DNA of 64,000 bases from Lachnospiraceae bacterium (GCA_014239155.1 JAAZZQ010000050.1:22284-86283), one strand, 5' to 3'; positions 31,809 through 54,736 are shown, numbered from the stretch's first letter. The notes: generated by a model from the sequence alone, not told the origin. Program-made: numbers and translations.

Positions 31809-34800
31809 TCAATTATTATACAACACAAATCCGTTTAAATATGGTTTTTTCGATGTCTTTTTCCATTCTCGAGCCAAGCTTACCTGACCACTGCGCGGCG
31901 GTGCCACAACCTCGCAATTTGGTGAAAAAGATGCAACAGTCACATAACTGCATTCTCCAGTAATTGTTTCCATCACTTGAAGTTCTACATTGGTTACAAA
32001 ACAGCGTTCGCCAAAAGACAAATCTTCCAGATACAAAATACCGCTGTAATCCTTTACACGCGGCAATAGAAGCTCTTCTGGCGCTCTGTTGTCAAATGAC
32101 AATACTGCCTTGAGACTCTTCTCCTGCGCAGTTGTATCTACCTTAACTCTCAAACCTGCACCATGCTGTATACTCCACGGTTGGCTCGTAACATCCAAAG
32201 AAAATTCTTGCGCTTGTGTCATAATGGTTCCAGCTACCTGCCTGTCCTCCTCTATATCAGATAACATAACATCATAACTGCTATCGCTCACAGCCACCCT
32301 GTATTCATACTCTGTACCCGGTTTAAGTCCATTAATAAAGGTCAGCATTCCACCTGTTGTCTTGCTGATAATATAACTCTTTTTATTCTTAATCCAATCA
32401 TCTGCCCCCTTTTCTCTATAAAATACATAGAGATACGAGTTCGTATTTATTGGATTGTTTGTAATCATCGCCTTAATTGAAATATAAGAATATCCGCTTG
32501 CCGCAATGACATTGGTAAGGCTTCTACCATCTGTCTGCGTCAGGATTTCGCCAGAGCAAGTTCCATTGAGAGTCGCTGTAATCGGTGGATATTGCACACT
32601 GCTAATACCAGTCACAAATTCATAAACTGTGTCTGCATTTACATCATCACCTAAATAGCTTGTAAGTTCAAAATTACACTCTGCCTGGTTCTCAGCCAGC
32701 AATGTCGTCCGAATATCCCAGTCCTCTTCATCTTTCTCCTTGAAAAACAACACAAGATATGAGTCCGGCGCTGGATCCCCCTCAATCTGTGCCTGCAATG
32801 TAATATTGTGTGCCCCTGCAATCTGATTGCCGACACTCACCCGCACACCATCAATTTTTGCATCAAAAGTAAACGTATAACTTCCATACTCTTTCCCTTT
32901 AATATCGCGGAAAGAAACATTATAGCTTCGCTCATCCACAAGACCAGAAATCGTATACCCTGTTGTCTGATACCCCTTTGCGGCGTAGAGATTAAAGCTA
33001 GAACCATTTTTATAATACGCTCCATCTTCCTCCTGAACATAGGCAAACAAAGTGATATCCTTTGTAATATTTTCTGTTCTGCCTTTCAGCGCAATTGTAC
33101 AGGTTATTGATTCTGATAAATTCGCTGTGATTGAAACCGCTACCTCTGATTTTTCTGTATGAATGCGTTGATATTGTGTATTTATCAACGTACTGCCTTC
33201 AAAAAGCTCCCATTTAAAACCATACTCTGTATCTGGAGAAAGTGCAAAATAATCTGCTGCCTGAACAAATATTGTATAATCCTCCACTGCTGTAAGTGCT
33301 GTTTTTGTCCGCAACTCTGCATAGAGTTTTGTCTCATCATTATAATAATACAATTTATAGCTGTACGCAAAACTCCTTGTCAGTTCCATTTCATCTAATC
33401 CATAAGAAAGCACAGAATCATATGCTCCTGTATCTGCTGTCAAGCGAGGATTAATGCGCGCTTTTCCCATCTGAAAAGTACCGCGCTTCACTACACCGGC
33501 AATCCAAACTTCATATTCATATCCTGCACCTTCCTGCAAACCAATCAGCACACCTTTTGCCGTACCGTCTTTCACCTGAATTACCTTTGTCTCATACTCA
33601 CCAAGGGAATTTTTCATTCGATACTTTAATTTTCCTGTCCAATAAATTGTATCGTCTGTTATATGAACCGTATACTCTGCTTTGGTACTTTTTTCCTTAC
33701 TCTGCTTAATCGAAACAGACAATGCGCTCTCTGAAAATGGTGCCAAATCTGTCTTAACCTCCAAAGTCTTTTCCTTAAAATGTGCAGAATACCCTGATTC
33801 ATTAATCCACATTGTAACAAGATACGACGTATTGTGTTGCAAATCAGGCACTGATTTCTCAATCGTCCATCGCTCGCGGCCTTTTGTAGCAAGTTTTTCT
33901 ATATCTGAAACGATCGTTTTGCCATTTTGATCTGCAATCTCGTAACATAAATTAAAATATTCTGGAACTTTTCCTGAAAATGCAGTAATATCTGCTCTAA
34001 GCACAATATTGTCTGGTCCAGATGATCTAACATTATAATTTACCACCGCTGGATATTCTTTTGTATCAACTGTTGTATATGCAAAAGTAACACCACTTCG
34101 ATTATAAAATTCAAAGTAATAGGTCTGCGCTGGTTCAAGCCCTGTTACCGTAATGCTCGAAGTTCCATTAATATATCGTTGTACTGTCACTTCCTTATCG
34201 TACTCTGCAAGTGGACCATAACTGTATTTTGCCACTGGTTCCACAGCCTCTACTTCCAGTGTGATGCTGTCATATCCAGCACGCTTACTCCGAAAAATCA
34301 AGTTTTCGCGCGAGCTTCCTGTCTGCATTTTAATCGGATTGCTCTCTGGTATCAATACTGCCTCAAGTTCTAGTGTACTTGCATTGACCAAATACATTGT
34401 AAAGTTGTACTCTACTCCTGCCTCAAGTGCATTGATCATTCTTTCTTTTTTTACTTCCGGTGAAATCTGCTCCTCAATTAATTGATAGCCAATATCACTG
34501 TTTCCATATCGAATTTGCCAGTAGTAATTTCCGCCAAGCGCTGCACCATTTTTAGAAGAAAGTTTTATGTCCGCTGAAATAGTCCTGCTGGCTGCTCTCC
34601 AACCAATCTGCGCTGTAAAGACTCCTGTACTTGCTGTATAACCATTGCCTGTTCTTCCTACAGATGCCATTTTCACCCCAGTTACACCAAACTGAACACT
34701 TTTCCCAATCGCAGGTCCACTTTCCGCACAGGAAAGCTGCGGATATACTGTCTGTCCTTTTTCCAGATACATCAAAGCATATCGTATTGTATTCTGATAT

Positions 34801-35651
34801 AACTGGTTTCTTAACTTAACTCCATCTGCATACCGGTCATATATGCTCAATGATACACCACCTACACTGCTTCCCTGTATATAAAAATTATAATATCCTG
34901 ATTCTGATGCAGTAAATTGAAACCACTGTGCCCCATTATGTTTTAAGAGCACAGACTTAGCAAAGCCACTTTTTATCACTATTGTGTTATTCAACACAGA
35001 CTCCTCAACCACAGTCTGTTCCTCTGTTGATTCCTCCTCCGTGGTAGTTGTCTCCTCTGTCTCTTCCTCCGTCGTTTCTTCTTCTGTCTCCTCGTCTGTG
35101 GTCTCTTCTTCCTCTGTCTCTGTATCCTTTTCCTTGGAGTACTCCTCCGATGTCTCCTCCGTACTTTGTTGCGTATCCGAAGTTTCAGACGAGGAAGACT
35201 CTTCCGTGTTTGTCTCTGTTGTGGAAGAGTCCTCGCTGCTTGTTGTCTCTGTACTAGAAGACTCCTCGGCGCTTGTCGTCTCTGTACTAGAACTTTCCTC
35301 ACTGCTTGCAGTTTCAGTGCGGGAAGGTTCTTCATTGGAAGTTTCTGTACTAAAATTTTCCTCACTGGAAGACTCCTCACTTGTACAAACTTCCTCTGAA
35401 GAATCTTCCTCTGAAAGCTCTTCAGAGGAAAACTCTTCTGAAGATTCTTCTTCACTGGAAGATTCTTCCTCAAGAGTTTCTTCCTCCGAAGGCTTTTCTG
35501 GCTCTGAAGGTGCTTCCTCCTCCGATTCTTCTGAATCTTGTGATACGCTGCTCTCTGTCAAAGTCTCCTCTTCCGCCCCATAACTGATCTGTGGTATGCT
35601 TACCGCTAAAAGGCAGCTGCACAACAACACTGATATCATTCTGAAAAACAT
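31809..35651 (-). CDS. Large secreted protein: signal peptide, ~190-aa acidic S/E/T-rich region, then multiple FN3/Ig-like beta-sandwich repeats; no recognisable anchor
   Basis: 1280 aa. Signal peptide MFFRMISVLLCSCLLAVSIPQISYG-AEEE. The low-complexity region reads SSEESSSTETTSAEESSSTETT.... FN3-like strand motifs recur (GLEPAQTYYFEFYN, GLKPGTEYEYRVAV, GLQEGAGYEYEVWI). The C-terminus has no LPXTG or TM. Confidence 0.8.
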   Translation of the reverse strand: MFFRMISVLLCSCLLAVSIPQISYGAEEETLTESSVSQDSEESEEEAPSEPEKPSEEETLEEESSSEEESSEEFSSEELSEEDSSEEVCTSEESSSEENFSTETSNEEPSRTETASSEESSSTETTSAEESSSTETTSSEDSSTTETNTEESSSSETSDTQQSTEETSEEYSKEKDTETEEEETTDEETEEETTEEETEETTTTEEESTEEQTVVEESVLNNTIVIKSGFAKSVLLKHNGAQWFQFTASESGYYNFYIQGSSVGGVSLSIYDRYADGVKLRNQLYQNTIRYALMYLEKGQTVYPQLSCAESGPAIGKSVQFGVTGVKMASVGRTGNGYTASTGVFTAQIGWRAASRTISADIKLSSKNGAALGGNYYWQIRYGNSDIGYQLIEEQISPEVKKERMINALEAGVEYNFTMYLVNASTLELEAVLIPESNPIKMQTGSSRENLIFRSKRAGYDSITLEVEAVEPVAKYSYGPLAEYDKEVTVQRYINGTSSITVTGLEPAQTYYFEFYNRSGVTFAYTTVDTKEYPAVVNYNVRSSGPDNIVLRADITAFSGKVPEYFNLCYEIADQNGKTIVSDIEKLATKGRERWTIEKSVPDLQHNTSYLVTMWINESGYSAHFKEKTLEVKTDLAPFSESALSVSIKQSKEKSTKAEYTVHITDDTIYWTGKLKYRMKNSLGEYETKVIQVKDGTAKGVLIGLQEGAGYEYEVWIAGVVKRGTFQMGKARINPRLTADTGAYDSVLSYGLDEMELTRSFAYSYKLYYYNDETKLYAELRTKTALTAVEDYTIFVQAADYFALSPDTEYGFKWELFEGSTLINTQYQRIHTEKSEVAVSITANLSESITCTIALKGRTENITKDITLFAYVQEEDGAYYKNGSSFNLYAAKGYQTTGYTISGLVDERSYNVSFRDIKGKEYGSYTFTFDAKIDGVRVSVGNQIAGAHNITLQAQIEGDPAPDSYLVLFFKEKDEEDWDIRTTLLAENQAECNFELTSYLGDDVNADTVYEFVTGISSVQYPPITATLNGTCSGEILTQTDGRSLTNVIAASGYSYISIKAMITNNPINTNSYLYVFYREKGADDWIKNKKSYIISKTTGGMLTFINGLKPGTEYEYRVAVSDSSYDVMLSDIEEDRQVAGTIMTQAQEFSLDVTSQPWSIQHGAGLRVKVDTTAQEKSLKAVLSFDNRAPEELLLPRVKDYSGILYLEDLSFGERCFVTNVELQVMETITGECSYVTVASFSPNCEVVAPPRSGQVSLAREWKKTSKKPYLNGFVLYNN

Positions 35652-35746: not shown

Positions 35747-37258
35747 TCATTTCATCAACTCATCAATCTCTGCCAAAATATCTTTCTTTCGCTCTGTAAA
35801 TAACATATCCTTATTATGTTTAAAGTACGCTTGACAGCCATATTTGCCAATATATTGTGCCGCATAACTATTGATCGTCAGCTCTGTCACCAATATTAAA
35901 AGCTCCTGACTTCCCGCGTCAAAAGCCTCCTCACAAAACTGGAATACATTTGTCAGATTGCTATCTGCCTGCGAAACAAGTTTTGTGAGTGCCTTTTTTC
36001 TTTTGTCAAAATCTGTTTTTAAAAGTTTAAATGCAGCCTCACCACTTGCAGGAAGTTTTTGCGCAATCAACTTTAATTGCTCATCCAATACAGCCATTGT
36101 AATGTTCAGTATATACTCACGATCCGCCGAAAGATTTCCAGCTTTCTTTCCGACAGAAATTGCCTTTTGTTCTGCTAGTATCTGCCGATTGACAACCTCT
36201 ATAAAATCTTTCTCAACAACAAAATCCGCCCGCATTAGCCTTAGACAGTTCACCAATTCCATCACTGCCCCCTCCTGTGCTGACACTTCGCGCACCACAG
36301 TAACCAGACCATCTATAAGCAATCCCAGCAGAGATAAACGCTCGTCAAATTTCGCATCCTTGGCACGTTTGACAATCTCTTTTCCGGCCTTTCCAGCCAT
36401 AATCTTATCAACTTGATAATCAGATCTGTACTTTTTAAACAAATCATAATAGACTGCAAAACCTTTGGCTATTTTTTTATTCTGCAAATATTGAATCACA
36501 AGCTGTTCGGTAACAGGAATCTCCTTTTGCTCATACAATTTTATCATGTCAGAAAGGTCACTCCAACCACGTGCTGTCACAAAACTTTTCCCATCCACAG
36601 TTGTTTCTATTTTATAGAAATCATCCTTTTTAATATCCAGATATGTTGTGATTGCAGGGTGTGTACCTCTCGCATAAGCATATTCTTTCCATGCCTCATA
36701 ATCCGCTTTCACATCAATGCGCTTTAATCGATCCCACGTCACAATATCAAATTCCCGCACAGAATTATTATATTCTGGTGGATTTCCTGCGGTGACTACA
36801 ATCCAACCACCGGGAACACTGTGACGCCCAAATGTCTTGTACTGCAAAAACTGCAACATTGAGGGCGCAAGCGTTTCCGAAACACAGTTAATCTCATCAA
36901 GAAACAAAATGCCTTCCTTTAATCCAGTCACTTCCATTAAATCATAAATCGATGCTATAATTTCACTCATTGTATACTCACTGACACTGTACTCCTCACC
37001 GCCATAATTTTTCTTGACAATAAATGGCAGTCCTAGTGCAGACTGTCTAGTATGATGCGTCATAGAATAACTGACCAAACCAATCTGTAACTCCTGTGCA
37101 ATCTGTTCCATAATCGCTGTCTTTCCAATGCCTGGCGCTCCCATCAAAAAAATAGGGCGCTGCCGTTCAATAGGAATCACATAATTCCCAAACTGATCTT
37201 TTGTCAAATAAGCTGACACTGCATTTTTAATATCTTCCTTTGCCTGTTTAATATTCAT
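35747..37258 (-). CDS. MoxR-class (AAA_5-like) AAA+ ATPase with ~200-aa helical C-terminal extension
   Basis: 503 aa. Walker A LMGAPGIGKT and Walker B ILFLDEIN, followed by VVTAGNPPEYN. GGAGAG RBS lies 12 nt after the upstream stop. Confidence 0.85.
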   Translation of the reverse strand: MNIKQAKEDIKNAVSAYLTKDQFGNYVIPIERQRPIFLMGAPGIGKTAIMEQIAQELQIGLVSYSMTHHTRQSALGLPFIVKKNYGGEEYSVSEYTMSEIIASIYDLMEVTGLKEGILFLDEINCVSETLAPSMLQFLQYKTFGRHSVPGGWIVVTAGNPPEYNNSVREFDIVTWDRLKRIDVKADYEAWKEYAYARGTHPAITTYLDIKKDDFYKIETTVDGKSFVTARGWSDLSDMIKLYEQKEIPVTEQLVIQYLQNKKIAKGFAVYYDLFKKYRSDYQVDKIMAGKAGKEIVKRAKDAKFDERLSLLGLLIDGLVTVVREVSAQEGAVMELVNCLRLMRADFVVEKDFIEVVNRQILAEQKAISVGKKAGNLSADREYILNITMAVLDEQLKLIAQKLPASGEAAFKLLKTDFDKRKKALTKLVSQADSNLTNVFQFCEEAFDAGSQELLILVTELTINSYAAQYIGKYGCQAYFKHNKDMLFTERKKDILAEIDELMK

Positions 37259-37270
37259 TGATTTCTCTCC

Positions 37271-38962
37271 TTATTCTGTGGTGTATTGAAAACGAAACCC
37301 CTTTTCTTTGCAATAGTCTTCTGCCTTACTTCCTTTGGGACAGGATATAATCAGGTTTGGACAACCACTAAATATCTCATCTCCCTCATTAAACTTATTA
37401 AAAACAGATGTTAACCTTTGAACAGAGCTTGGCAGTATAACCTCTTTCAAATCACTACAACCCAAAAATGCATTTCCACCGATTTCAAGAACACCTTCAC
37501 AAATATGTACACGCTCTAATTTCTTACAATAGAAAAATGCACACGCCCCTATCCTCTTTACTGTTCCTGGAATGGTAAGACTTTTCAAAGATTCACATGC
37601 CCAAAACGCACCTATGCCAAGTTCTTCTAAACCATCAGCAATCATTATCTCTTGCAGGGAAGACATATTGCGAAACGCATACTTTTCAACCTTTCGCAGT
37701 GTCTTTGGCAGTATAATCTTTGTTATCTTACCATGTTGTTCAATCTGCTCTTGTCTTGTATATACAGAAGTAAAACCAGTATTTCCAGTAAATGCACCAT
37801 ATCCTATCACTGTGACAATACCCTTGCCAATCTTTTCTGGAACAGTAACTTCAATTTCCTTGCCTTTGTAGTTTGTAATGGCTAGTGTTCCATCCTCTTT
37901 TTTCTCATAACGCCACAGTTTTCTTAATGCTGTGACAGAATCTGACGCCATATTTAACTCCCGCATTAACTTTTTTTCTGCTTTCCTTTGTTCAGCCGTC
38001 AAGTCAACAGTACGATTTTTGAAATCCAAAAGCCATGCTGCCGATTCTATTTTGTGATTTTCTGAAGCATATGCAATTAATTCATCACGCCGGCGTATAT
38101 CCTTAAGCCAGCCGTAATCCTCTACAATTTTTAGACAGGAAACACGCTCATTATCAATGATTTCTCCTAGAATCCTTTTCTTGTTCATCTCAGATTGATT
38201 AAAATGTTGTAGAAAAACCATAAAAAACTCGGGAATCAAAAACCGCTGACTGTTTATTCGCCAAAGTTTTTCCGTGAAATGCAACTTTTTTTCTTCGCCG
38301 ATTTCTGTGTGTAATGCAGAGAGAACATGTGCCAATGTATCATCACTAAGTGTCCCTAGAAAATACCAGTACATCGTCCACCTGTCATTTTCATTTCCAC
38401 CTCCCTCTGTCAACATTTCTTTTATCTCATTGGAAAAGCAAATTCCTTTTTCCTTTAATGCATTGGCAATATTTCTCTCATCTGTAAGGATTGCATAGTA
38501 AAGATAGTCTCCAGAGAAAAGACAAAGCTTCCCCTCCTGTTCGCACAAATATTCTATAACCTGAATACGTTCTTCCTCACAGAGTGGCATAAGCGGTTTG
38601 CCCTCACTGTCAACAAGCTCATTCATCTTTCTATTTGGCGCAAAATAACCCTTGATTCGATCCACACCTTTTAATAAAAACAAAATAAAAAAATCCGGAA
38701 GAAGCATTAAATAGTGCGTGCCAAAATCATAATACAAATCGTAATCTATCCTTGTCTCATATCCGAATGATACGCCGCTTTCGACAAGAGCTTTCACCAT
38801 ATCCACCCCGGCAAAACGACCAGCAATTCCCAAAATACGAGCCGTGAGAAAAGGATTATGAAGCTCCTGATAAAGTCTCACCGCCTCGTCAGGTACACCG
38901 CTAAGCACTGCCTTCTCAATTGCTTTTAGCTTTGCCTTTTCCTCTCTATATTGTGTATTCAT
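37271..38962 (-). CDS. Cytoplasmic ankyrin-like + leucine-rich-repeat (LRR_5/BspA-type) protein, paralog 4 (most divergent N-terminus)
   Basis: 563 aa, no signal peptide or TM. Four xxAFxxCxxL LRR units by hand count. Conserved linker AAWLLDFKNRTVDLTAEQRKAEKKLMRELN. ATGA start/stop overlap with the upstream paralog. Confidence 0.8.
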   Translation of the reverse strand: MNTQYREEKAKLKAIEKAVLSGVPDEAVRLYQELHNPFLTARILGIAGRFAGVDMVKALVESGVSFGYETRIDYDLYYDFGTHYLMLLPDFFILFLLKGVDRIKGYFAPNRKMNELVDSEGKPLMPLCEEERIQVIEYLCEQEGKLCLFSGDYLYYAILTDERNIANALKEKGICFSNEIKEMLTEGGGNENDRWTMYWYFLGTLSDDTLAHVLSALHTEIGEEKKLHFTEKLWRINSQRFLIPEFFMVFLQHFNQSEMNKKRILGEIIDNERVSCLKIVEDYGWLKDIRRRDELIAYASENHKIESAAWLLDFKNRTVDLTAEQRKAEKKLMRELNMASDSVTALRKLWRYEKKEDGTLAITNYKGKEIEVTVPEKIGKGIVTVIGYGAFTGNTGFTSVYTRQEQIEQHGKITKIILPKTLRKVEKYAFRNMSSLQEIMIADGLEELGIGAFWACESLKSLTIPGTVKRIGACAFFYCKKLERVHICEGVLEIGGNAFLGCSDLKEVILPSSVQRLTSVFNKFNEGDEIFSGCPNLIISCPKGSKAEDYCKEKGFRFQYTTE

Positions 38963-40605
38963 TTATATATTGACTCCTCCATTGTATCTGCTTTTTCTTT
39001 ATCACAGTTTTGAAATGAAAGGTTATTTTTCTTACAGTAAGACTCTATTTCGCTTCCCTCTGGACAATATATAACAAGCTTGGGACAATCCGAAAATGCC
39101 CGCTGGCCAATTTTTAAGACCCCCTCGCTGATATACACCTCCTCAAGATTTCTGCAATCCGTAAAGGCATATTCCCCAATTTCTTTTACAGATTCAGGAA
39201 TTGTGAGTCTTTTGAGAGAACCACATTCATAAAAAATAAACGCGGCAATTTCCTCAACACCTTGAGGAATGTTAATTTCCCTGAGCGCCTTCATACTCAT
39301 AAATGCACCCGCACCAATAGATTGAACTGTTTCTGGCAGTGTAATTTTCTTAATAGTGCGATGCTGTTGTTCCTGTTCCCATGAGGTGTATGTAATGATG
39401 CCCGCTTTCCCTGATGAGCCCGCAAGTGCACCATCTTTGATCGCTGTGACAGTGCTTCTTCCTATTTTTTCTGGGACAGTCACCTCCGTATGTGTACCTT
39501 TATAGTTGGTAATCACAAGAGTACCATCTTCTCTTTTCTTATAGCTCCAAATCTTTTTCAGTGCTTCAACGGAATTCGGTGATATATTTTTGTTGAGTTC
39601 ACGCATCATCTTTTTGTCGGCTTTTTCCCGCTCTGCGGCAAAATCAGCAGTGCGGTTCTTGTAGTCTAAAAGCCATGCAAGCGCCTCTGTCTTCTTATTT
39701 TCAGAGGCGTACTCTATTATCTCATCGCGCTTTTTGGGCACAGAAAACCAACCTACTCGCTCAATTATTGGCAGTGCCTCTAAGATGTCATCATCAATTA
39801 GATCACGAATTATTTGATATTTCTTCATCTTATCCTGTCTAAAGTGCACAAGGAAATACTCAAACACTTCTAAATCCTGAAAACGCTTCTTGGTAACATC
39901 AAACATTTTTTCTGTATAATAAAATGGTTTTTCATCAATCTCCAAGGCAAGCTGTTGCATAACATCAAGATAATTCTTATCCGCAAGTTTTCCTGTCAGG
40001 GCACAAAATTCATACCAGTATCCATCTGAAATCGTAACACTCCCCTCTGTCATTGTATGAACACGTCTGTCAGAAAGTGTGACACCATGTCTTCTCAACT
40101 CTTCAAAAATAACAGCATCTTTGGCACAAATCGCATAAAACAGCATTTCTTCTGGCTGAAATGAAAGTTTTTCCTTCTGTGCAATAAGGTATTCCAACAC
40201 GGTCACTCGCTCCTTATCTGCAAGAAACGACAAGGGTTTTCCCGCTTCTCGTTTCCTATTTTTTGTGAACTTCATACCTGTGAGGCAGCAGGCGCCCTTT
40301 AGTTCACCGCGAAACACTTTCAACAAATACAACGCATAGTTTGTGCGATAATTCGCATACTTCTGCCCAATATAGCAGCCATATAATATCTCACTTTCTT
40401 GCGTTGATGGAAAGTCAAAGGTTGCACCTTTTTTTACTAAAATCTTTACCATATCAAGTCCACGAAAACGACAGGCAAGCCCAAGTGCTGGCGCGGACAT
40501 TTCCACATAGCCAAGCTTGTCATAGAGTTTAGAAAGCTCCTCAACAGAGCAGTTGATTACTGCATGTTCTAAGGCTTCTGCTTTTTCTTTCTGTGTAAGC
40601 TCCAT
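38959..40605 (-). CDS. Cytoplasmic ankyrin-like + LRR (LRR_5/BspA-type) protein, paralog 3
   Basis: 548 aa. ANK-like segment APALGLACRFRGLDMVKILVKKGATF. Four LRR units. GGAGGAA RBS lies inside the upstream gene's end. Confidence 0.8.
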   Translation of the reverse strand: MELTQKEKAEALEHAVINCSVEELSKLYDKLGYVEMSAPALGLACRFRGLDMVKILVKKGATFDFPSTQESEILYGCYIGQKYANYRTNYALYLLKVFRGELKGACCLTGMKFTKNRKREAGKPLSFLADKERVTVLEYLIAQKEKLSFQPEEMLFYAICAKDAVIFEELRRHGVTLSDRRVHTMTEGSVTISDGYWYEFCALTGKLADKNYLDVMQQLALEIDEKPFYYTEKMFDVTKKRFQDLEVFEYFLVHFRQDKMKKYQIIRDLIDDDILEALPIIERVGWFSVPKKRDEIIEYASENKKTEALAWLLDYKNRTADFAAEREKADKKMMRELNKNISPNSVEALKKIWSYKKREDGTLVITNYKGTHTEVTVPEKIGRSTVTAIKDGALAGSSGKAGIITYTSWEQEQQHRTIKKITLPETVQSIGAGAFMSMKALREINIPQGVEEIAAFIFYECGSLKRLTIPESVKEIGEYAFTDCRNLEEVYISEGVLKIGQRAFSDCPKLVIYCPEGSEIESYCKKNNLSFQNCDKEKADTMEESIYK

Positions 40606-40607
40606 CT

Positions 40608-42590
40608 TTATTCCTCCATAAAATAATTGATTTCCAAATCTTCATTATTCCGAAACCGAAGGCCTTTTTTAATGCAATATTCCTCCATTTTACTTTTTTT
40701 CGGGCATACTACAGTTAAATTGGGGCACTCTTCAAACACACCACACTTGCGCGCTCCATACTTTTTTGTTATCAGATGCTGGACGGATTTTGGGACAAAA
40801 ACCACCTTTAAATTCGGGCATTTAAAAAATACACCATCGTCCATTTCCTGAACCCCCTCACGGATCTGTACACTCTCAAGAACACTACATTCATAAAACA
40901 TGTATTTTTTCATATTAGTCACAGTTCCGGGAATCATTATATTTTTTAGACAAACACAACCATAAAATGCAGATGCACCGATTTCTTCAACGCTCTCCCC
41001 AATATGGATTTCCTCCAATTTTTGACAGTGCGCAAATGCAAGTTTCCCAATTTTCTTTAAAGAATTGGAAAAAATAAGCTTTCTTAGGGCGTTACAATTT
41101 GCAAATACTTCTTCACCAATTTCACAAACACCATCAGGAATGGTTATCTGTTTTAATGCTTCCATTACATAAAATGCTCTTGCACCAATTTTTTCTAAAC
41201 TCTTTGGAAGTGTAAGATGTTTTAGTGAGCGACAACACCCAAATGCCTCTTCCTCAATTACACTTACACCTTCAGGAATGTTAATCTCCACAAGTGACTT
41301 CATATTAAAAAAAGCACCCGCTCTAATTTCATGAACTGTTTCTGGAAGGATTATTTTTGTAATTTTACAGCGGTGTTCTATCTGCTCTGCGGTCACTTTT
41401 CCATTATAATAACTGCCCGAAAAAGCACCCTTTCCAATTGCTGCGACAACGCCTTTTCCTATCTTCTCTGGAACAGTCACCTCAAACTCTGTCCCTTTAT
41501 AATTAGTAATAGTAAGGGTGCCATTCTCCTCTTTTTTATAATTCCAAATCTTCTTTAACGCAGTAACAGAATTTGGTGCAGCATTCAGTTCACGCATCAG
41601 TTTCTTATCCGCTCTCTCCTGTTCTGCAGCAAAATCAGCCGTGCGGTTTTTAAAATCCAGAATCCATGACAACATCTCTGTCTTGTTGTTCTCCGATGCA
41701 TACGCTATAATTTCATCGCGCCTTTTGGTGACATTGAGCCACCCCTCACGCTCAATAATAGGAAGCACATCTATCTGATCTTGTTCTATAAAATCACGTA
41801 TCATCTCAATTTTATTCATTTTCTCCTGTTTGAATTGCGCTAGAAAAAATTCAAATATTTTGAGATCACAAAACCGTTTTTTAGTAATTTGGTATATATT
41901 CCATGTAAAATAAAATTGCTTTCCATCAAGTTCAGCAGCAATCTGCTGCATGATTTCCAGATAATCGCTGTCGGCTAACTGTTCTGTAAGAAGAACATAC
42001 TCAAACCAGTACCCATCCATAGCGATAGCACCTTCTGTTAGCTTTTGCACACGGATTTTAGAAAGTTTAATATTATACGTTTTCAATTCCTTTACAATGG
42101 CAGTATCTTTGAAGTATATCGCATAAAATAATAATTCTTCTGGCTGAAAAGCTATCTTTTCTCTGTTCTCTAAAAGATATTTTAACACATCCACACGTTT
42201 CTCATCCGAAAGAAATGGTAGTTGGCGTCCCTCTTTTGTATTTGCACTCCTTTCCATTGTCATACCGTTTATGCAAAAAATTCTTGAATTTTCTCCAAAA
42301 ATTTTTAATAAATACATTGCATAATTTGTTCGGTAATTCCCATATTTCTTCCCGATATAACAATGATATCTCTCCTCAATTTTCTTAGTGGATGGAAAGT
42401 CAAAGGTTGCTCCTTTTTCCACCAGCACCTTCACGATATCAAGTCCTCGGAAGCGGCAGGCAAGACCAAGTGCAGGTGCAGACATCTCTATTTCTCCAAG
42501 CGCGTCACAGATTTTTCTTAGGTCCTCAACAGAGTTATTAAGAACTGCCTGCTGCAACTGCATGGCTTTTTCTTCCTGTGTAAATTCCAT
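40608..42590 (-). CDS. Cytoplasmic ankyrin-like + LRR (LRR_5/BspA-type) protein, paralog 2
   Basis: The start is set at MEFTQEEKA (42590), because the track's MKGGMK extension is the RBS AAGGGGGG. Eight LRR units by hand count. Confidence 0.8.
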   Translation of the reverse strand: MEFTQEEKAMQLQQAVLNNSVEDLRKICDALGEIEMSAPALGLACRFRGLDIVKVLVEKGATFDFPSTKKIEERYHCYIGKKYGNYRTNYAMYLLKIFGENSRIFCINGMTMERSANTKEGRQLPFLSDEKRVDVLKYLLENREKIAFQPEELLFYAIYFKDTAIVKELKTYNIKLSKIRVQKLTEGAIAMDGYWFEYVLLTEQLADSDYLEIMQQIAAELDGKQFYFTWNIYQITKKRFCDLKIFEFFLAQFKQEKMNKIEMIRDFIEQDQIDVLPIIEREGWLNVTKRRDEIIAYASENNKTEMLSWILDFKNRTADFAAEQERADKKLMRELNAAPNSVTALKKIWNYKKEENGTLTITNYKGTEFEVTVPEKIGKGVVAAIGKGAFSGSYYNGKVTAEQIEHRCKITKIILPETVHEIRAGAFFNMKSLVEINIPEGVSVIEEEAFGCCRSLKHLTLPKSLEKIGARAFYVMEALKQITIPDGVCEIGEEVFANCNALRKLIFSNSLKKIGKLAFAHCQKLEEIHIGESVEEIGASAFYGCVCLKNIMIPGTVTNMKKYMFYECSVLESVQIREGVQEMDDGVFFKCPNLKVVFVPKSVQHLITKKYGARKCGVFEECPNLTVVCPKKSKMEEYCIKKGLRFRNNEDLEINYFMEE

Positions 42591-42604
42591 TTTCATTCCC
42601 CCCT

Positions 42605-44800
42605 TCAAACGCCGCTTTTTTCAAATACATTGTCTTTAAATCGAAACCCTTTTTCTCTACAATATGCTTCCGTATCACTTCCCTTAGGACAGATTACTGT
42701 CAGATTTGGACAAGCCCCAAACACCTCATAGACAATATTTCTATATTCCATAGATTTTAAGCGCTGAACAGACTGTGGCACACAGACTTCCTTTAGCGAA
42801 TCACAGCACCAAAATAAACCTGCATTTAGTTCTTGAACCCCCTCACAAATAAAAACTCTTTCCAAATTTTTACAGCCTGAAAATGCATGTAATCCAACAC
42901 GCACTACTGTACCGGGAATTGTGACATTTCTCAGAGCATTGCACCCATAAAAAGCCTCATCACCAATCTCTTGAATCCCTTCATTCATATAGATTGTTTC
43001 TATACTTCTACAGTCTGCAAATGCCTCTTTTCCAACGCGTTGTACTGTTTTAGGAATTATAATATTTTTTAAATTCTGACAGGCATAAAATGCACATTTG
43101 CCAATTTCCTCGACACCTTCACAGAGACCTACTTCTCTTAGTTTTCTACAGTTTGCAAATGCTTCCTCTCCAATTATTTTTACACTTGCAGGAATTGTAA
43201 GTTTCCTTAAAGAACTGCATCCAGAAAATGCATCTTTACTAATTTTCTCTACGTTTGGGGGAATTACAAGTTCTTTTAAAGAAGCGCATCCATGAAATGC
43301 CCCCTCACAAACCTCTCGCATATCTTTATGAATAGATACTGCTTCCAACTTTCGACAATTATAAAATGCTTTGTTGCCAATTTTTTCTATATTTTCGGAT
43401 ACAATAAGTTCTCTTAGATGACAACATCCGCTAAATGCCTCCACATCAATCTCTTTTACTCCTTCCGGAATATTGATTTGTTCCAAGTTGGCCAGCTCAT
43501 GGAAAGCACCTTTTCCAATGTATGTGATTGTCTGTGGCAGCACAATTTTTGTAATTTTTTTATTCCGATCTATCTGTTGTTGTGTCGCACATGGTTTGTA
43601 GGTATTATCCCCTGCAAATATACCTTTTCCAATCGCTGTGACAACGTTTTTCCCAATTTTTTCTGGAACAATAACCTCGATATGTATACCTTTGTAACCT
43701 GTAATAATAAGAGTATTATCTTTTTGTTTTCTATAATTCCATATCTGTCGAAGTGCAGTCACAGAACCCGGTGCTGCGCCGAGTTCTCGCATCAGTTTTC
43801 TATCAGCCTTTTCCTGCTCTGCAGCGATATTGGCAGTACGATTTTTAAAGTCAAGCAGCCACGCAAGTGCTTCTGTCTTTTTATTTTGTGATGCATATAA
43901 AATCATTTCATCACGTTTTTTTGGCGTAGCAAGCCAGCCTTGTCTCTCAATAACAGCCAACGCATCAATGGCATTCTCGTCAATTAGATAACGTATTATA
44001 GAAAATTTTTTCATTTTTTCTTGTCTAAAATTAGCAAGGAAAAATGAAAAAATATCAATATTATAGAAACGTTTTTGTGTACTATACAATATTTTTTCCG
44101 TAAAACGATATGGCTTTCCATGAAGCTCAGTAGAGAGTTGACGCATCACTTGAATATAATCTTTGTCGGCAAGCTTTGCGGTTAAAGAACTAAACTCAAA
44201 CCAATATCCATCCGCTATGGTACCCTCTGTTATTGCATAACTACGTTTTTCTGAAAGCACAATATTATGCTCTTTTAGGGTATCATAAATAACAAAATCC
44301 TTTGCAAATATTGCATAAAAAAGCATTTCCTCTGGCTGAAAAGATAATTCTTGTTTGTTTTCCAACAAAAAATAAAGCACCGCAATTCGCTCCTCATCCG
44401 CAAGAAGTGACAATTGCTCTCCATCTTCCCTCATTATCTTTTGAGTCAGCTTCATGCCCTGTAAGCAGCGAGCGCCCTTCAATCCACCACGATAACTTTT
44501 CAGCAAGTACAGCGAATAGTTTGTGCGATAATTTTCACGATAGTTTGCATGGTTTTTACCAATATGGCAATGATATGTCATTTCAATTTCCTCAGTTGAA
44601 GGAAAATCAAACGTTGCTCCTTTTTCCACCAGCGCCTTCACAATATCAAGCCCTCGAAAGCGGCAGGCAAGTCCCAACGCAGGCGCAGACATTTCCACAT
44701 ACCCTAACTTGTCATATATCTTACAAAGCTCCCCGACAGAATTATTGAGAACTGCATGCTGCAGCCGCGCAGCTTTTTCTTCCTGCGTAAGAAGTTCCAT
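42605..44800 (-). CDS. Cytoplasmic ankyrin-like + LRR (LRR_5/BspA-type) protein, paralog 1
   Basis: The start is set at MELLTQEEKA (44800), after an AAAGGTGGA RBS. Eleven LRR units by hand count. Confidence 0.8.
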   Translation of the reverse strand: MELLTQEEKAARLQHAVLNNSVGELCKIYDKLGYVEMSAPALGLACRFRGLDIVKALVEKGATFDFPSTEEIEMTYHCHIGKNHANYRENYRTNYSLYLLKSYRGGLKGARCLQGMKLTQKIMREDGEQLSLLADEERIAVLYFLLENKQELSFQPEEMLFYAIFAKDFVIYDTLKEHNIVLSEKRSYAITEGTIADGYWFEFSSLTAKLADKDYIQVMRQLSTELHGKPYRFTEKILYSTQKRFYNIDIFSFFLANFRQEKMKKFSIIRYLIDENAIDALAVIERQGWLATPKKRDEMILYASQNKKTEALAWLLDFKNRTANIAAEQEKADRKLMRELGAAPGSVTALRQIWNYRKQKDNTLIITGYKGIHIEVIVPEKIGKNVVTAIGKGIFAGDNTYKPCATQQQIDRNKKITKIVLPQTITYIGKGAFHELANLEQINIPEGVKEIDVEAFSGCCHLRELIVSENIEKIGNKAFYNCRKLEAVSIHKDMREVCEGAFHGCASLKELVIPPNVEKISKDAFSGCSSLRKLTIPASVKIIGEEAFANCRKLREVGLCEGVEEIGKCAFYACQNLKNIIIPKTVQRVGKEAFADCRSIETIYMNEGIQEIGDEAFYGCNALRNVTIPGTVVRVGLHAFSGCKNLERVFICEGVQELNAGLFWCCDSLKEVCVPQSVQRLKSMEYRNIVYEVFGACPNLTVICPKGSDTEAYCREKGFRFKDNVFEKSGV

Positions 44801-44817
44801 AGATATTCCACCTTTCA

Positions 44818-46203
44818 TTATAGTTCATCTTTTCTGAGTACCAACTTAATTGCCCACGATGGAATATCATAATTATTGTGCATACTATAAGTACTCTTCT
44901 CGTCCTCAATAAATACAAATGCGGTGTCGTAAGATGGCTTTTTGCTGGGAAATGGACCAAAACCATCTGTAAAATAAATCAAACCTTTAAGATTATCAAA
45001 TTCTCTATTGTGCACTAATGTATTGACATATTCAAACACAGGACGAAAATCCGTTCCTCCTAAACCATGAAGTTTCATGTGTTTTAGATACGCATCAAAC
45101 TCCTGCTGGGTAGTAATCTTGACATCTTCTTGAATATTTGCGTCACATTGAATAATGTGCAAATTTATTTTTGTAAAAAAGCTTTCTGTGCTCTTGAGAA
45201 TATTATAGGTTTTCTGCACAAAAGTCTGCACCAAATCACCGGAAGTTGAGCCTGACGTGTCAATCGCCACCACAAACTCCCGAATGCGCTTTACTTCCTT
45301 ATATTCTAGCGGTTCTATCAAGGGCATATTTTCATATAATTGTAGCCCATAAGTATAAAAATTATAGTCAAACTCATCCGGATTGATTTTCATCATCTCT
45401 GCTCTGACAGCAAATTTTTTAAGAAACTCTGTATAATCATAGCGCTCTCTGTTCACTTCCCGCAAATTCTGTGTTAACAGTCCTGCCTCTGTTCCTCGAC
45501 TCTTCAAAAAAACTTCTAGTTCTGTCTGCATGCGCAAAGAAATATCTCCCCAACTTTGTAAAAGTAGTAAGCGATTTGGCACAAGCCCTGCACCATTCCC
45601 AATGTTTGCTATCCGTTCCCCAAAAATGGCATAAATTCCCATCTCTTTTTTCTGCTCCTCTGTAAGATACCAGAGGCAGTGGTCATCTCCTTTAAACAAC
45701 CGTGACAGTCTTTCCACCAAATCATCAGAAAGTTTTTCATCCAAAAAATATCTGTATATCTTCTCCGCGGAAATTGTCTTTACCTTCTTTTTGAATAAAT
45801 CGAAAAATTGAACCTGTTCCTTCGCTTTGGTAATGTTTAAATAGTTTAGCTCCAAATCATTAATAGCGCTTTCCACTGCAATGTCACAAGCCAAATCCCA
45901 CATTGTTTGATTAACCAGTGTATTCACAAAAAAATGCTTAAAAACACAATGCAGTACACTATGTAAAAAATTACGCGTCGGATAATTTTCATCAAGTTGA
46001 TATGCATTCAAAATATGTACTGGATCATAAACATATACGTCGCCATCGCAGGCGGAGAAGGGAGTTACCTCAGGCTTGGGTCCAATTCTAAACTGATTTA
46101 ATGACATGTCCATAAAACGCATATTAACCAACAGCCGATTTTTGGACATCTGAATAATATCGGCTGCTATCTTTTCAATCTTTTCTTTTTTTTCCTGTTC
46201 CAT
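44818..46203 (-). CDS. VWA-domain protein with N-terminal DUF2201_N-like (degenerate metallopeptidase-like) domain
   Basis: 461 aa. MIDAS-type motif VVAIDTSGSTSGD. The N-terminal block NFLHSVLHCVFKH sits where related proteins carry HExxH. First gene of the operon. Confidence 0.75.
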   Translation of the reverse strand: MEQEKKEKIEKIAADIIQMSKNRLLVNMRFMDMSLNQFRIGPKPEVTPFSACDGDVYVYDPVHILNAYQLDENYPTRNFLHSVLHCVFKHFFVNTLVNQTMWDLACDIAVESAINDLELNYLNITKAKEQVQFFDLFKKKVKTISAEKIYRYFLDEKLSDDLVERLSRLFKGDDHCLWYLTEEQKKEMGIYAIFGERIANIGNGAGLVPNRLLLLQSWGDISLRMQTELEVFLKSRGTEAGLLTQNLREVNRERYDYTEFLKKFAVRAEMMKINPDEFDYNFYTYGLQLYENMPLIEPLEYKEVKRIREFVVAIDTSGSTSGDLVQTFVQKTYNILKSTESFFTKINLHIIQCDANIQEDVKITTQQEFDAYLKHMKLHGLGGTDFRPVFEYVNTLVHNREFDNLKGLIYFTDGFGPFPSKKPSYDTAFVFIEDEKSTYSMHNNYDIPSWAIKLVLRKDEL

Positions 46204-46341
46204 TTTGTTATCCTTATCTTAACTCATTTTTCTTGACAGATTACTCTTTCTTTGCTCTTGTCTTCACTGCACCATTCTTAAGGTTTCATTATTAAATTGG
46301 AAACTTTTATCGCTTCTAAATCCTTAAATCTATCCTAACAC

Positions 46342-46376
46342 AAAAATAAACAAACGTCTATAAAAGAACGTTTGCT
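46342..46376 (-). terminator. Rho-independent terminator of the beta-lactamase-like gene
   Basis: The minus strand reads CAAACGT-loop-ACGTTTG followed by TTTATTTTTGTG. Confidence 0.65.
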
Positions 46377-46410
46377 TATCTCTGTCTTATTCCCGCTTTA
46401 TTCCGAAACG

Positions 46411-51418: not shown

Positions 51419-52240
51419 CTATAAACAAATATCTACAGGGGTATATATTGTCAACTGTGATGATAAGGTTCTAACCATTGCCTTACCCTTTGAAACAGAA
51501 ATATTCGACTGTGTATTTCCATTTTTTGAATCTGACACTGTTTTTTCCTGTGCATCTGCATCAAACATCGTTTTGTCTAAATCTTCTTCTTTTGCACCTG
51601 TGGTTTTTGTGTCCTTTCCATTTGTCCTTTTATCCTTGTTGTCTGCTTTTGCTGCTTCCTTCATTGTGTTGTTTGCATCTGCCAGCGTAGAAAGCTGCGC
51701 TGTGGTCGCTGCCTGTGCTTTCTGCTCCACATCGGCAAGCTCTTCTTCCTTTTTCAGCGTACTATTGTTTCTGGATTGATCTAATTTGATTTCAGATTCC
51801 AAAACCCCAGCTCTTCCTTCCATTTTTCTTGCCGCACTGCCCTGCGCTTTTGCCTGTTTAATAGAATTGCCCGCAGAAATCATTGTTGTCATGCTCGTCT
51901 GTGAAAGTCCTGTTTGGATTTCTGTCTTTGTATCCTTTGTGTTCTCAGCATCGTCAAACGTATCATTCCTAGAAGAGTCTTTTGCTTGCTGTTTCTCCCT
52001 GCGCTGTTGCATCTGATATTGTCTTAACTGCAGATTCAAATTGTTAATTTGTTGTTGTATCTCCTGACGCTTCTTCATTTTTTCCTTTGGCGGTATATCC
52101 TCGTTAGAAGAAAGCTCCTGCAACTGCTTCTGTGCATTAACAATCTGATTCTGAATATTTCGGCTATAAGAATCTGTTGCCTGGTTTATGCCCACTTGCC
52201 CCACTTGTGTATTTGCTCCACTGATATTACTAATTGTCAT
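51419..52240 (-). CDS. FlxA-like glutamine/lysine-rich coiled-coil protein
   Basis: The start is set at MTISNISGANTQ (AAGGAGGG RBS). The block QKQLQELSSNEDIPPKEKMKKRQEIQQQINNLNLQLRQYQMQQ resembles the FlxA family. Confidence 0.55.
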   Translation of the reverse strand: MTISNISGANTQVGQVGINQATDSYSRNIQNQIVNAQKQLQELSSNEDIPPKEKMKKRQEIQQQINNLNLQLRQYQMQQRREKQQAKDSSRNDTFDDAENTKDTKTEIQTGLSQTSMTTMISAGNSIKQAKAQGSAARKMEGRAGVLESEIKLDQSRNNSTLKKEEELADVEQKAQAATTAQLSTLADANNTMKEAAKADNKDKRTNGKDTKTTGAKEEDLDKTMFDADAQEKTVSDSKNGNTQSNISVSKGKAMVRTLSSQLTIYTPVDICL

Positions 52241-52653
52241 TTTCTTAGCCCTCCTTAATATAAACTCCTCATTTTGTAACTCCAACGGGAATTTTTGTTT
52301 CTACAACTAGTGCTTCATCCAGTCAGAAATTAAAATTGTGGGCTGCATGTTTCGTGCCAGTACTAGGCGGAATTTCGACGGCGATGTGGTGGCATCGTTT
52401 AGAAATTTCAACGACACAATGGTGCAAAACAGGTAGTTCACAGCTCTGATTTCTGGCCGGATGGAATACTAGACCTATTTGTCTAAAGCGTGTTTCTAAC
52501 ATGCTCTAATTATTTTTTCGACTCTTTTACTTTGACAATAAACCGATATGCTGTGGAACAACCATTTTCTGTTGTAAACCCATACACAATCAATAATTCT
52601 ATCTTATATATCAAATCTATTTTCTAACAAGAGAGACATTTCCAAACTCTTCT

Positions 52654-54024: not shown

Positions 54025-54736
54025 TGTTGCTGTCCTTCCTCTGGTTGTAATGTAAATACTGCTTTACAAATTTCCTGTAATTCTGCTTTGCCATAAGTGC
54101 CTGTCCTCTTTCCAGATAAATTGTTGTGCCATCATATTTCCTAATATAATTAAAATTTACAAGATACGCCCTGTGAGAACGATAGAAATCCTCTCCAGCC
54201 TTTGCTTCTAATTCTTTGAGCTTTCCATAGTATTCAATATCTTCATTAATTGTATGCAGAATTACTTTCCGGTCGAACACCTCTGCATATATAATGTTCT
54301 GCGGATTGACTACAATATGTTTTCCTTCTGTAGTTATCATCAAACTTGGAGTCTCATTCCCTATCTCCTTATTTTTCCTGTCCGCAAGCTGTTCTACCGC
54401 ACTTTTTAACACCGCCTCAAATTTTGTATCCTCAAAGGGTTTCACCAGATAATGAAATGCTCCTACATCAAATGCCTGAAATACATAATCCCCAAAAGCC
54501 GTCACAAAAATTAAAATTGTATTTTTATGATTTTGGCGAAATGCTCTAGCTGTCTCCATCCCATCTTTTCCCGACATCTGAATATCAAGCAGCAAAAGGT
54601 CCATCTGGCAGTCTGATACAAGCAATTCTTCACCAGATTGATAGAACGATAGAACAGCTTCTGGGTAAATCCTTTGTATCTTTTCCGCAAGCATATCTCT
54701 AATTTCTTTTTCATCATCGCATATTGCTATGTGCAT
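54014..54736 (-). CDS. LytTR-family response regulator
   Basis: 240 aa. Receiver domain (DLLLLDIQM) plus a LytTR DNA-binding domain (FYRSHRAYLVNFNYIRKY). Confidence 0.9.
   Translation of the reverse strand: MHIAICDDEKEIRDMLAEKIQRIYPEAVLSFYQSGEELLVSDCQMDLLLLDIQMSGKDGMETARAFRQNHKNTILIFVTAFGDYVFQAFDVGAFHYLVKPFEDTKFEAVLKSAVEQLADRKNKEIGNETPSLMITTEGKHIVVNPQNIIYAEVFDRKVILHTINEDIEYYGKLKELEAKAGEDFYRSHRAYLVNFNYIRKYDGTTIYLERGQALMAKQNYRKFVKQYLHYNQRKDSNNDK

Follow-up and report, generated by a model that had tools for sequence, protein, structure and literature searches.

A recurrent gene trio of a MoxR-class AAA+ ATPase, a DUF2201-VWA protein and leucine-rich repeat proteins, expanded to six genes in a Lachnospiraceae bacterium

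In a stretch of 64,000 nucleotides from a Lachnospiraceae bacterium (GCA_014239155.1 JAAZZQ010000050.1:22284-86283; this whole stretch is called the window below), six consecutive and tightly packed open reading frames (ORFs), g1-g6, run on the minus strand from position 46203 to position 35747. They encode a VWA protein (g1), four paralogs with leucine-rich repeats (LRRs; g2-g5) and an AAA+ ATPase (g6), an arrangement that raises two questions: do the repeat proteins belong with the ATPase and the VWA protein, or do they lie beside them by chance, and what could the three kinds of protein do together? ATPases of the MoxR class work with VWA adaptors, which use a metal-ion-dependent adhesion site (MIDAS) to bind the target at an acidic residue and which couple to the ATPase ring. 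A preliminary description of the window, made from its sequence, had read the six genes as a candidate sensor or conflict system.

To see the ATPase in other contexts, we fetched 80 loci from species-representative genomes through an alignment of the ATPase family, with the ATPase as the sole criterion. The loci span the Oscillospiraceae, Acutalibacteraceae, Lachnospiraceae, Erysipelotrichaceae and the actinobacterial Eggerthellaceae, that is, at least five families in two phyla. Three ORF families recur in them, AAA+ (73), DUF2201-VWA (68) and LRR_5 (63, with 91 genes); the next commonest, a generic transporter, occurs 11 times, and clustering of the ORFs of the 80 loci yielded no fourth conserved gene. 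The VWA gene adjoins the ATPase gene in 68 of the 80 loci, most of the others being cut by contig ends. Adjacency of the repeat genes was counted with hidden Markov models (HMMs) built from the window's own proteins, at the 53 loci with full flanks: an LRR or ankyrin-like gene adjoins the pair in 49 of them, which answers the neighbourhood check proposed in the preliminary description, and of the four exceptions one carries a genuine ankyrin protein (Ank_2, 40 bits). Repeat genes beside the pair number 94, as against a single one elsewhere in 924 kb of flank. Conversely, all three sampled relatives of the N-terminal module (N-module) of g2-g5 were found within arrays of the form VWA-(LRR)n-AAA, where n is 3, 4 and 6. 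Chance juxtaposition is rejected by the 80-locus survey together with this reciprocal test. Since the gene order varies (VWA-AAA-LRR in 28 loci, VWA-LRR-AAA in 11, LRR-VWA-AAA in 5, plus divergent arrangements) and the chromosomal neighbours differ by lineage (uvrC, pta-ackA, pst and others), the trio itself is the conserved unit.

The nature of the ATPase was approached through its predicted structure. AlphaFold2 models were made of monomers only (g4 and g6); that of g6 (predicted local distance difference test, pLDDT, 89.2; predicted template modelling score, pTM, 0.81) contains a helix-2-insert beta-hairpin, whose strands (78-85 and 88-95) lie between beta2 and alpha2, and a pre-sensor-1 hairpin at about residues 142-147, ahead of beta4. 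The top 17 Foldseek matches of the model are NorQ or CbbQ chains (NorQ 9qh4-9qhg, the NorQ-NorD complex and CbbQ 6l1q; E 1e-7 to 1e-5), and the MoxR-class structure 2r44 (CHU_0153) is matched as well. By its predicted fold, g6 is a MoxR-class AAA+ ATPase, in agreement with the preliminary description, and the Walker motifs and extra helical C-terminal region noted there were also found (Table 1). G40, G43, G45, K46, T47, D121, E122 and N164 are invariant in an alignment of 38 family members. In Pfam g6 passes AAA_5 (33.4 bits, cut-off 22) and matches AAA (30.6 bits), and a search for a STAND NTPase gave nSTAND3 at 17.3 bits (cut-off 27.2), over the P-loop only. The homologs of g6 form 610 clusters at 50% identity (E ≤ 1e-30).

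The VWA protein belongs to DUF2201 (PF09967; 46.8 bits, cut-off 26.4), and residues 6-438 match the phage family phrog_1314 (113.8 bits); no domain lies on the C-terminal side of the VWA domain, and a PDB sequence search gave no informative match. The MIDAS reported for g1 is confirmed. The motif AIDTSGS occupies residues 313-319, and the DxSxS, Thr and Asp positions are each kept at at least 90% across 76 aligned DUF2201 proteins from the surveyed loci, so that the site is intact across the family. The N-terminal domain gives a match below the cut-off to DUF2201_N (PF13203; 17.4 bits, cut-off 23.2) and resembles a zincin metallopeptidase. Here the preliminary description holds in part: H81, H85 and H90 (HxxxHxxxxH) are invariant in 76/76 sequences, but position 82, which carries the catalytic Glu in HExxH zincins, is I, T, V, M, L or S in all 76 and never E. 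The peptidase-like domain is therefore predicted to be catalytically dead and, because the three His are kept while the catalytic Glu is lost, is most likely a metal- or peptide-binding module and not a protease.

The four paralogs combine an N-module with BspA-type LRRs, as had been described. LRR_5 (PF13306) scores are 431, 201, 99 and 92.8 bits for g2 to g5, the repeats of g2 following a register of 425, 448, 471 and onward, and what chiefly sets the paralogs apart is how many 23-residue LRRs they have (about 4 to about 12) and the sequence of these LRRs. In the model of g4 (pLDDT 82.8), an all-helical repeat (residues 1-337) gives way to a charged linker that is disordered (325-345) and then to a C-terminally capped LRR solenoid (353-533), which resembles TpLRR (6mlx, template modelling score 0.66 on the target) and also matches 4gt6 and 4fs7 in Foldseek, TpLRR and LRR proteins of gut bacteria being its nearest structures in the PDB; this fold search was of the whole model and was dominated by the LRR half. 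The ankyrin-like character assigned to the N-module stands less firmly. Its helical repeat is seen in the g4 model, but only one repeat is recognisable (residues 40-65), aligning to the ankyrin consensus with hhalign P = 0.011 (TPR P = 0.34). Its end weakly matches the bona fide ankyrin partner at L021 (P = 5.6e-4), and Ank_3 passes in g3 alone (26.6 bits, cut-off 22.3), the other Ank matches of g2-g5 being sub-threshold. We retain "ankyrin-like" as a weak label, suggested by these alignments. The N-module family comprises 407 database hits, and NCBIfam offers the LRR proteins only partial adhesin HupY/LrrG matches, with no model that names any of the operon proteins.

No segment of g1-g6 exceeds 1.55 on the Kyte-Doolittle scale (19-residue window), and the six proteins are therefore taken to have neither transmembrane segments nor signal peptides, as had been stated for the repeat paralogs. 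Likewise, 81 of 84 linked LRR proteins from the survey have no N-terminal hydrophobic segment.

The form seen in the window is not the usual one. In VWA-AAA-LRR, the commonest arrangement, the partner is a single protein of about 300 residues, so the placing of four ankyrin-like and LRR paralogs between the VWA and ATPase genes is true of the window but does not extend to the family. Comparison of the loci indicates that the window operon is a lineage-specific expansion: the N-module is confined to a small sublineage that includes the window and in which the partners are amplified to arrays of 3-6 tandem paralogs. Elsewhere the partners are diverse. Pfam finds LRR_5 in 82 of 84 linked partners, BRCT in three and DUF4132 in two plus that at L034; other features include Ank and DUF6273, with single cases of SLH or zinc-ribbon matches.

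Several partner types deserve mention in their own right. The small partners (L044:11527-12459 and 26 similar loci, for example L045, L057, L075 and L092) have about three LRR_5 repeats followed by a helical domain of about 190 residues. This domain, which has no Pfam family and also ends many larger partners, shows the motifs LLA...L, a nearly invariant CGEEDY, HTKG and a terminal helix E-x-K-A-Y-L-x-x-Y-K. This last helix bears a weak resemblance to the end of the window N-module (one helix, hhalign P = 0.033) and to that of the L021 ankyrin protein. In the sublineage with arrays, one 354-residue member (L126:4249-5313) consists of the N-module only, its LRR part having been lost, and similar proteins occur beside the ATPase at L024 and L042. 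DUF4132 is fused to LRR_5, or takes the place of part of the LRR partner, at L038:11522-14266, L059:3048-8483 and L034:3763-5832. BRCT lies C-terminal to the LRRs in three partners, including L014:7732-9510 and L020:7657-9918, and one operon family adjoins uvrC and an ogt-like methyltransferase gene (L007, L125); these fusions and neighbours could point to a setting of nucleic acids or damage, or could be fortuitous. In the Eggerthellaceae (L043, L048, L049, L051, L055) the LRR gene is divergently oriented and upstream of VWA-AAA, and in the two loci checked, L049 and L051, its neighbour is an SMC_N/AAA_23 (RecN-like) gene. At L051 the partner has diverged strongly in sequence, with no Pfam match and an LRR HMM match at only E = 2e-8.

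Table 1 Features of the six-gene operon and its surroundings (window coordinates; aa, amino acids)
Feature	Coordinates	Strand	Length	Description
g1	44818-46203	-	461 aa	N-terminal zincin-like pseudo-peptidase domain; C-terminal DUF2201 VWA domain with complete MIDAS
Zincin motif HSVLHCVFKH (g1)	45934-45963	-		Three His kept, catalytic Glu replaced
MIDAS DTSGS (g1)	45247-45261	-		Residues 315-319; conserved at at least 90% across the family
MIDAS partner Thr in GGTDF (g1)	45046-45060	-
MIDAS partner Asp in YFTDG (g1)	44962-44976	-
g2	42605-44818, or from ATG at 44800	-	737 aa, or 731 aa	Helical ankyrin-like N-module (about 320 aa), charged linker, about 12 BspA-type 23-residue LRRs, C-terminal cap
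g3	40608-42608 (TTG start), or from ATG at 42590	-	666 aa, or 660 aa	Ankyrin-like module and about 10 LRRs
g4	38959-40605	-	548 aa	Ankyrin-like module (residues 1-319) and 4-5 LRRs
g5	37271-38962	-	563 aa	Most divergent paralog; N-terminal module 34-40% identity
g6	35747-37258	-	503 aa	AAA+ core and lid, about residues 1-290
Walker A GAPGIGKT (g6)	37118-37141	-		Residues 40-47
Walker B ILFLDE (g6)	36893-36910	-		Residues 117-122
Helical C-terminal extension (g6)	roughly 35750-36391	-	about 210 aa	No counterpart in NorQ/CbbQ
Intrinsic-terminator-like hairpin	46342-46376	-		Ends upstream penicillin-binding protein (PBP) transpeptidase gene; 5' boundary of operon
Downstream ORF	31809-35651	-	1280 aa	Weak FN3 matches only
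agr-like module	51419-54736	-		About 5 kb upstream of operon; LytTR response regulator, GHKL (HATPase_c_5) kinase, FlxA-like protein

All six ORFs of the preliminary description were located, and its account of the junctions as one tight unit is borne out. One junction is TAATG, with a 1-nucleotide overlap (or a 17-nucleotide gap, with GGTGG ahead of the inner ATG), another is an ATGA overlap of 4 nucleotides, and the remaining gaps are about 2-14 nucleotides with GGAGG-like sites, Shine-Dalgarno-like sequences lying within the ends of the preceding genes. The same six genes stand on a metagenome contig obtained from a different sample (L097), with 99.7% identity across 21 kb, which excludes an assembly artefact. 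Its database gene calls of 461, 731, 660, 548, 563 and 503 residues reproduce the shorter starts of g2 and g3 that had been chosen earlier; as contig and independent gene caller agree, both the six-gene arrangement and the inner starts can be taken as real.

The terminator said to bound the operon upstream was recovered as a strong hairpin with a U-rich tail: the minus-strand fold of 46335-46385 has -21.4 kcal/mol (z = -8.0, 0/200 shuffles as good). A consensus terminator scan had overlooked it because the loop length allowed was too short. The other end is less sharply defined. A promoter-like match does precede the downstream 1280-residue gene, as had been suggested, but it is weak (TTTACC-18-TATAAT, 35713-35684), and folding of the RNA downstream of g6 gave no terminator-like structure (z = -0.9). 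Read-through is therefore possible, and the 3' end of the transcription unit may extend past g6. The position of the 1280-residue ORF is kept in relatives, at L098 (79.6% DNA identity) and at L126, where the gene has 1277 residues. Other neighbours in the window are ordinary chromosomal genes (PBP transpeptidase, AI-2E transporter, CheD, pst/phoU and two-component systems). Rfam matches within and around the operon are at chance level only, and the presence of a riboswitch or another known RNA there was rejected.

The components of the trio diverge together but at different rates, the AAA+ protein being the most conserved, followed by the VWA protein, with the LRR protein fastest: identities between locus pairs are 84/80/67% and 69/61/43% for AAA+/VWA/LRR (best pair for LRR). 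Genomes whose ATPase is 81-89% identical to that of the window have three or four paralogs without 1:1 orthology, their best paralog match being 72/56% (N-module/LRR), a pattern of birth-and-death evolution of the arrays. In related species (L098, L126) the operon is syntenic with that of the window, in one of them with 78% DNA identity for the LRR genes and 88% for the ATPase gene, from which we conclude that the locus is inherited vertically.

A strain pair, L010 and L011, gives a closer view. The pta and ackA genes are identical (dS = 0) and the ATPase genes nearly so (dS = 0.026), while the VWA gene and the first three LRR genes differ at dS 0.12-0.26, in patches of 84-93% identity that concentrate at the LRR-encoding 3' ends. 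Such a mosaic is typical of recombination or gene conversion, in what is one metagenome contig pair whose paralogous repeats can be misassembled. Whole-gene dN/dS values of 0.11-0.22 in this pair point to purifying selection overall. Directly 3' of the ATPase gene, the two strains also differ by an insertion of four genes, among them those for a TetR regulator, an NAD-dependent epimerase and DUF1295 (L010:11513-11746 against L011:10812-14946), making this site a strain-variable junction.

Distant homologs of g1 and g6 are found in phages (phrog_1314, phrog_1297, Thermus phage phiFa gp30/gp34 and 26 IMG/VR contigs), Bacillus phage G gp576 being another DUF2201 homolog. The match of g6 to phrog_1297 scores 138.5 bits, and the phage ATPases are 20-30% identical and lack roughly the last 135 residues of g6. 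In 17 of the 26 IMG/VR loci the DUF2201 gene lies beside the AAA+ gene or close to it, and an LRR neighbour occurs in none of the 26. HExxHxxxxH is present in all 17 phage and IMG/VR homologs where the motif was found, with cores such as HEVLH and HELLH, and the MIDAS is conserved. The chromosomal subfamily is thus marked jointly by loss of the Glu, a longer ATPase C-terminus and the gain of a repeat-protein partner. A prophage or plasmid origin of the locus is unsupported, true phages carrying only the 20-30% identical homologs; the close matches labelled "Bacteriophage sp." are unannotated faecal-virome fragments of 4-15 kb. Phage pairs lie at L099-L124 (IMG/VR), L095:2968-4146 and L096:2216-5384, and three phage contigs encode the zincin half and the VWA half in separate ORFs. 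The name "HNH endonuclease", given to the phage DUF2201 protein in RefSeq and PHROG (phrog_1314, phage G gp576), looks like a mis-annotation.

What might such a trio do? We lean towards reading the operon as the expanded form of a conserved machine of the cytoplasm, made of three components, in which remodelling is driven by ATP and LRR/ankyrin (ANK) proteins serve as exchangeable specificity subunits. The ATPase, with a presumed activity and presumably a hexamer like NorQ, CbbQ and RavA, would give ATP-driven mechanical work. The DUF2201 protein would be the obligatory adaptor, its VWA domain binding an acidic residue of the partner through the MIDAS and being coupled to the ring of the ATPase in the way that NorD is to NorQ. 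The repeat-scaffold proteins, soluble and one to six in number, would then serve as interchangeable target-recognition subunits, each holding a target on its repeat surface and presenting either the target or itself to the VWA-AAA+ pair, which would remodel, dissociate or sequester what is presented. Since the window paralogs differ mainly in LRR number and sequence, the four could give one motor four specificities, be it for proteins of the cell itself or for those of invaders. As no enzymatic effector is encoded, the output would be remodelling or sequestration and not cleavage or killing.

A number of observations weigh against this proposal. At the sequence level the MoxR membership of g6 is weak (bpMoxR 25.2 bits, cut-off 27), and the PDB sequence matches of g6 and of its family profile are confined to the P-loop, the only one of g6 itself being Midasin. 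Among the exceptions with full flanks, the partner position at L040 is taken by a DUF6273/zinc-ribbon protein, and L047 and L072 have no obvious partner. ATPase homologs with 73-75% identity also stand alone, with no VWA or LRR gene within 10 kb (L001-L003, L012-L013). No effector or output is identifiable from the encoded proteins, and the linkage and co-divergence fit LRR proteins as clients equally well as LRR proteins as adaptors. The solo ATPases adjoin an EPSP synthase gene and a metallo-beta-lactamase-fold gene, and may be degenerate or split systems.

The preliminary description had favoured an NLR/STAND-like or conflict reading and had raised a variable or defence-island position for the locus, neither of which finds direct support. 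In PADLOC-DB v2, five of the six proteins have no match and g6 matches only IetA and PDC-S73 (E 6e-6 to 7e-4, residues 5-63); defence, integrase, transposase and phage genes are absent from the window flanks, and the families that recur in the flanks across the 80 loci are all housekeeping, with no defence or mobile genes, an IS605-type gene being found upstream at one locus (L127). Neither a STAND NTPase nor an effector domain, PADLOC family or defence context was found. An immune or conflict sensor can nevertheless be formulated, in which the LRR/ANK paralogs would be cytosolic receptors for invader (phage or plasmid) proteins and the MIDAS adaptor would relay to a MoxR switch, in a split NLR-like logic that ends either in sequestration of the invader protein or in an unlinked effector. 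It would suit an LRR component that evolves about twice as fast as the ATPase, arrays of 0-6 genes under birth-and-death without 1:1 orthology at 81-89% ATPase identity, the VWA-LRR mosaic of L010/L011 (dS 0.12-0.26 beside pta-ackA at dS = 0), the presence of the module in both Clostridia and Eggerthellaceae, and a phage-encoded nearest outgroup of the AAA+/DUF2201 pair; published MoxR-vWA ternary systems, one class of them effector-less, have also been read as conflict systems (PMC7159879). We nevertheless regard this sensor as rather doubtful: besides the missing effector (the peptidase-like domain appearing dead), PADLOC family and defence or mobile genes, the locus is syntenic in related species (L098, L126) and vertically inherited like a core gene, dN/dS values of 0.11-0.22 give no positive selection at the whole-gene level, and the strain comparison is one metagenome contig pair with possibly misassembled paralogous repeats. 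A more specific version, which we consider unlikely, would have effector-less cytosolic receptors, diversifying LRR/ANK proteins that pass invader proteins in trans to a phage-derived or phage-mimicking pseudo-enzyme MoxR-VWA motor, which neutralises them by ATP-driven sequestration or disassembly.

The roles could also be reversed, with the LRR proteins as clients whose cytoplasmic or unconventionally exported structure is folded, assembled or disassembled by the MoxR-VWA pair, on the model of the MoxR-type ATPases for gas vesicles or an archaeal-virus tail. Neither secretion, anchoring nor structural genes recur nearby, the partners have no signal peptides, and their architectures (LRR only, ANK only, LRR with DUF4132, LRR with BRCT) are hard to reconcile with one kind of client; hence we find this quite unlikely, even though linkage and co-divergence are equally compatible with it, LRR_5 proteins are otherwise typical surface proteins (the partial HupY/LrrG matches and the cell-surface LRRs among the PDB neighbours), and the conserved acidic CGEEDY of the small partners might be a MIDAS ligand. 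Highly improbable, in our judgement, is a classical metal-cofactor or enzyme-maturation pair of the NorQD, CbbQO or CoxDE type that serves an unlinked enzyme and has the LRR gene as a passenger. NorQ and CbbQ are indeed the best structural neighbours, and the three conserved His could bind metal; yet no candidate client enzyme recurs nearby, whereas known pairs of this kind adjoin their client, and a passenger would hardly be adjacent in 49/53 loci despite repeated rearrangement of the gene order.

BspA-type LRR proteins, among the largest families of gut anaerobes, are as a rule regarded as adhesins of the cell surface, and a large cytoplasmic subset tied to an ATPase motor would give them a wholly different role. 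Abundant gut taxa of humans, mice and ruminants carry the ATPase family, which is large and has neither a name nor a Pfam family for its accessory domains. If the receptor version of the immune reading were true, a split, NLR-like immune logic would be built on a MoxR ATPase instead of a STAND NTPase. The chromosomal form (Glu lost, LRR gained) and the phage form (HExxH intact, no LRR) together offer a natural experiment on the function of both.

Among known systems, the closest AAA+ folds are in NorQ/NorD and CbbQ/CbbO, where the ATPase is likewise paired with an adjacent MIDAS-bearing VWA gene; NorQ and NorD are coupled through a VWA finger in the ATPase pore and a C-terminal contact (PMC13036017). 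However, g6 has no sequence-level orthology to NorQ or CbbQ and adds the helical C-terminal region of about 210 residues, g1 differs from NorD and CbbO in being a DUF2201 protein with an N-terminal pseudo-zincin, and a repeat-protein third component takes the place of the nearby client enzyme. The phage DUF2201 and AAA+ pairs contain homologs of both g1 and g6 with the MIDAS kept, but they retain HExxH, have a shorter ATPase and have no LRR neighbour. The uncharacterised Escherichia coli cluster yehF-yehI-yehL-yehM-yehP-yehQ (WGR, DUF4132, MoxR, VWA, SWIM) resembles the present family in linking MoxR and VWA genes to DUF4132, YehI (DUF4132) adjoining the MoxR/VWA pair YehL/YehP (L094), and DUF4132 may be a recurrent MoxR-VWA-associated module. 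Orthology with the yeh cluster was rejected, YehL and YehP resembling g6 and g1 in the Walker A and MIDAS motifs only; no Yeh protein matches the LRR partners, and the present family has no SWIM or WGR gene. In Midasin (Rea1), a MoxR-clade AAA+ protein with a MIDAS pulls the WD40 proteins Rsa4 and Ytm1 that are docked on a large complex. The likeness, an AAA+ protein with a MIDAS acting on repeat-scaffold proteins, is by analogy only, since Midasin is eukaryotic, carries ring and MIDAS on one polypeptide and has WD40 partners with ubiquitin-like (UBL) domains.

The nearest relatives in overall design are the MoxR-vWA ternary systems, which have been interpreted as conflict systems, the beta-propeller type being without a conventional effector (PMC7159879). 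Their described third components are VMAP, iSTAND, iSTAND2, TERNS3, FtsH and a beta-propeller (Kaur et al. 2020, 2021). The present trio shares with them the combination of MoxR, vWA and a variable, faster-evolving third component, often of superstructure-forming repeats, and a vWA-fused domain that is often a catalytically inactive peptidase. In contrast, LRR_5, with ANK or alone, makes up the third component of the present trio, which is none of the six described types, the extra domain is N-terminal to a DUF2201 vWA where theirs is C-terminal, the bpMoxR score is below the cut-off, and the hosts are unicellular gut anaerobes where theirs are multicellular bacteria. PMC7159879 makes no mention of DUF2201 or ankyrin, and LRR appears there in one reference title only. 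Our literature search found no description of a module of MoxR ATPase, DUF2201-VWA and LRR proteins, in keeping with the earlier remark that no characterised system has such an architecture. The MoxR-VWA ternary theme is thus already known, and what appears to be new is the trio with an LRR third component and a DUF2201 vWA, which would add a further class to these systems, in unicellular hosts.

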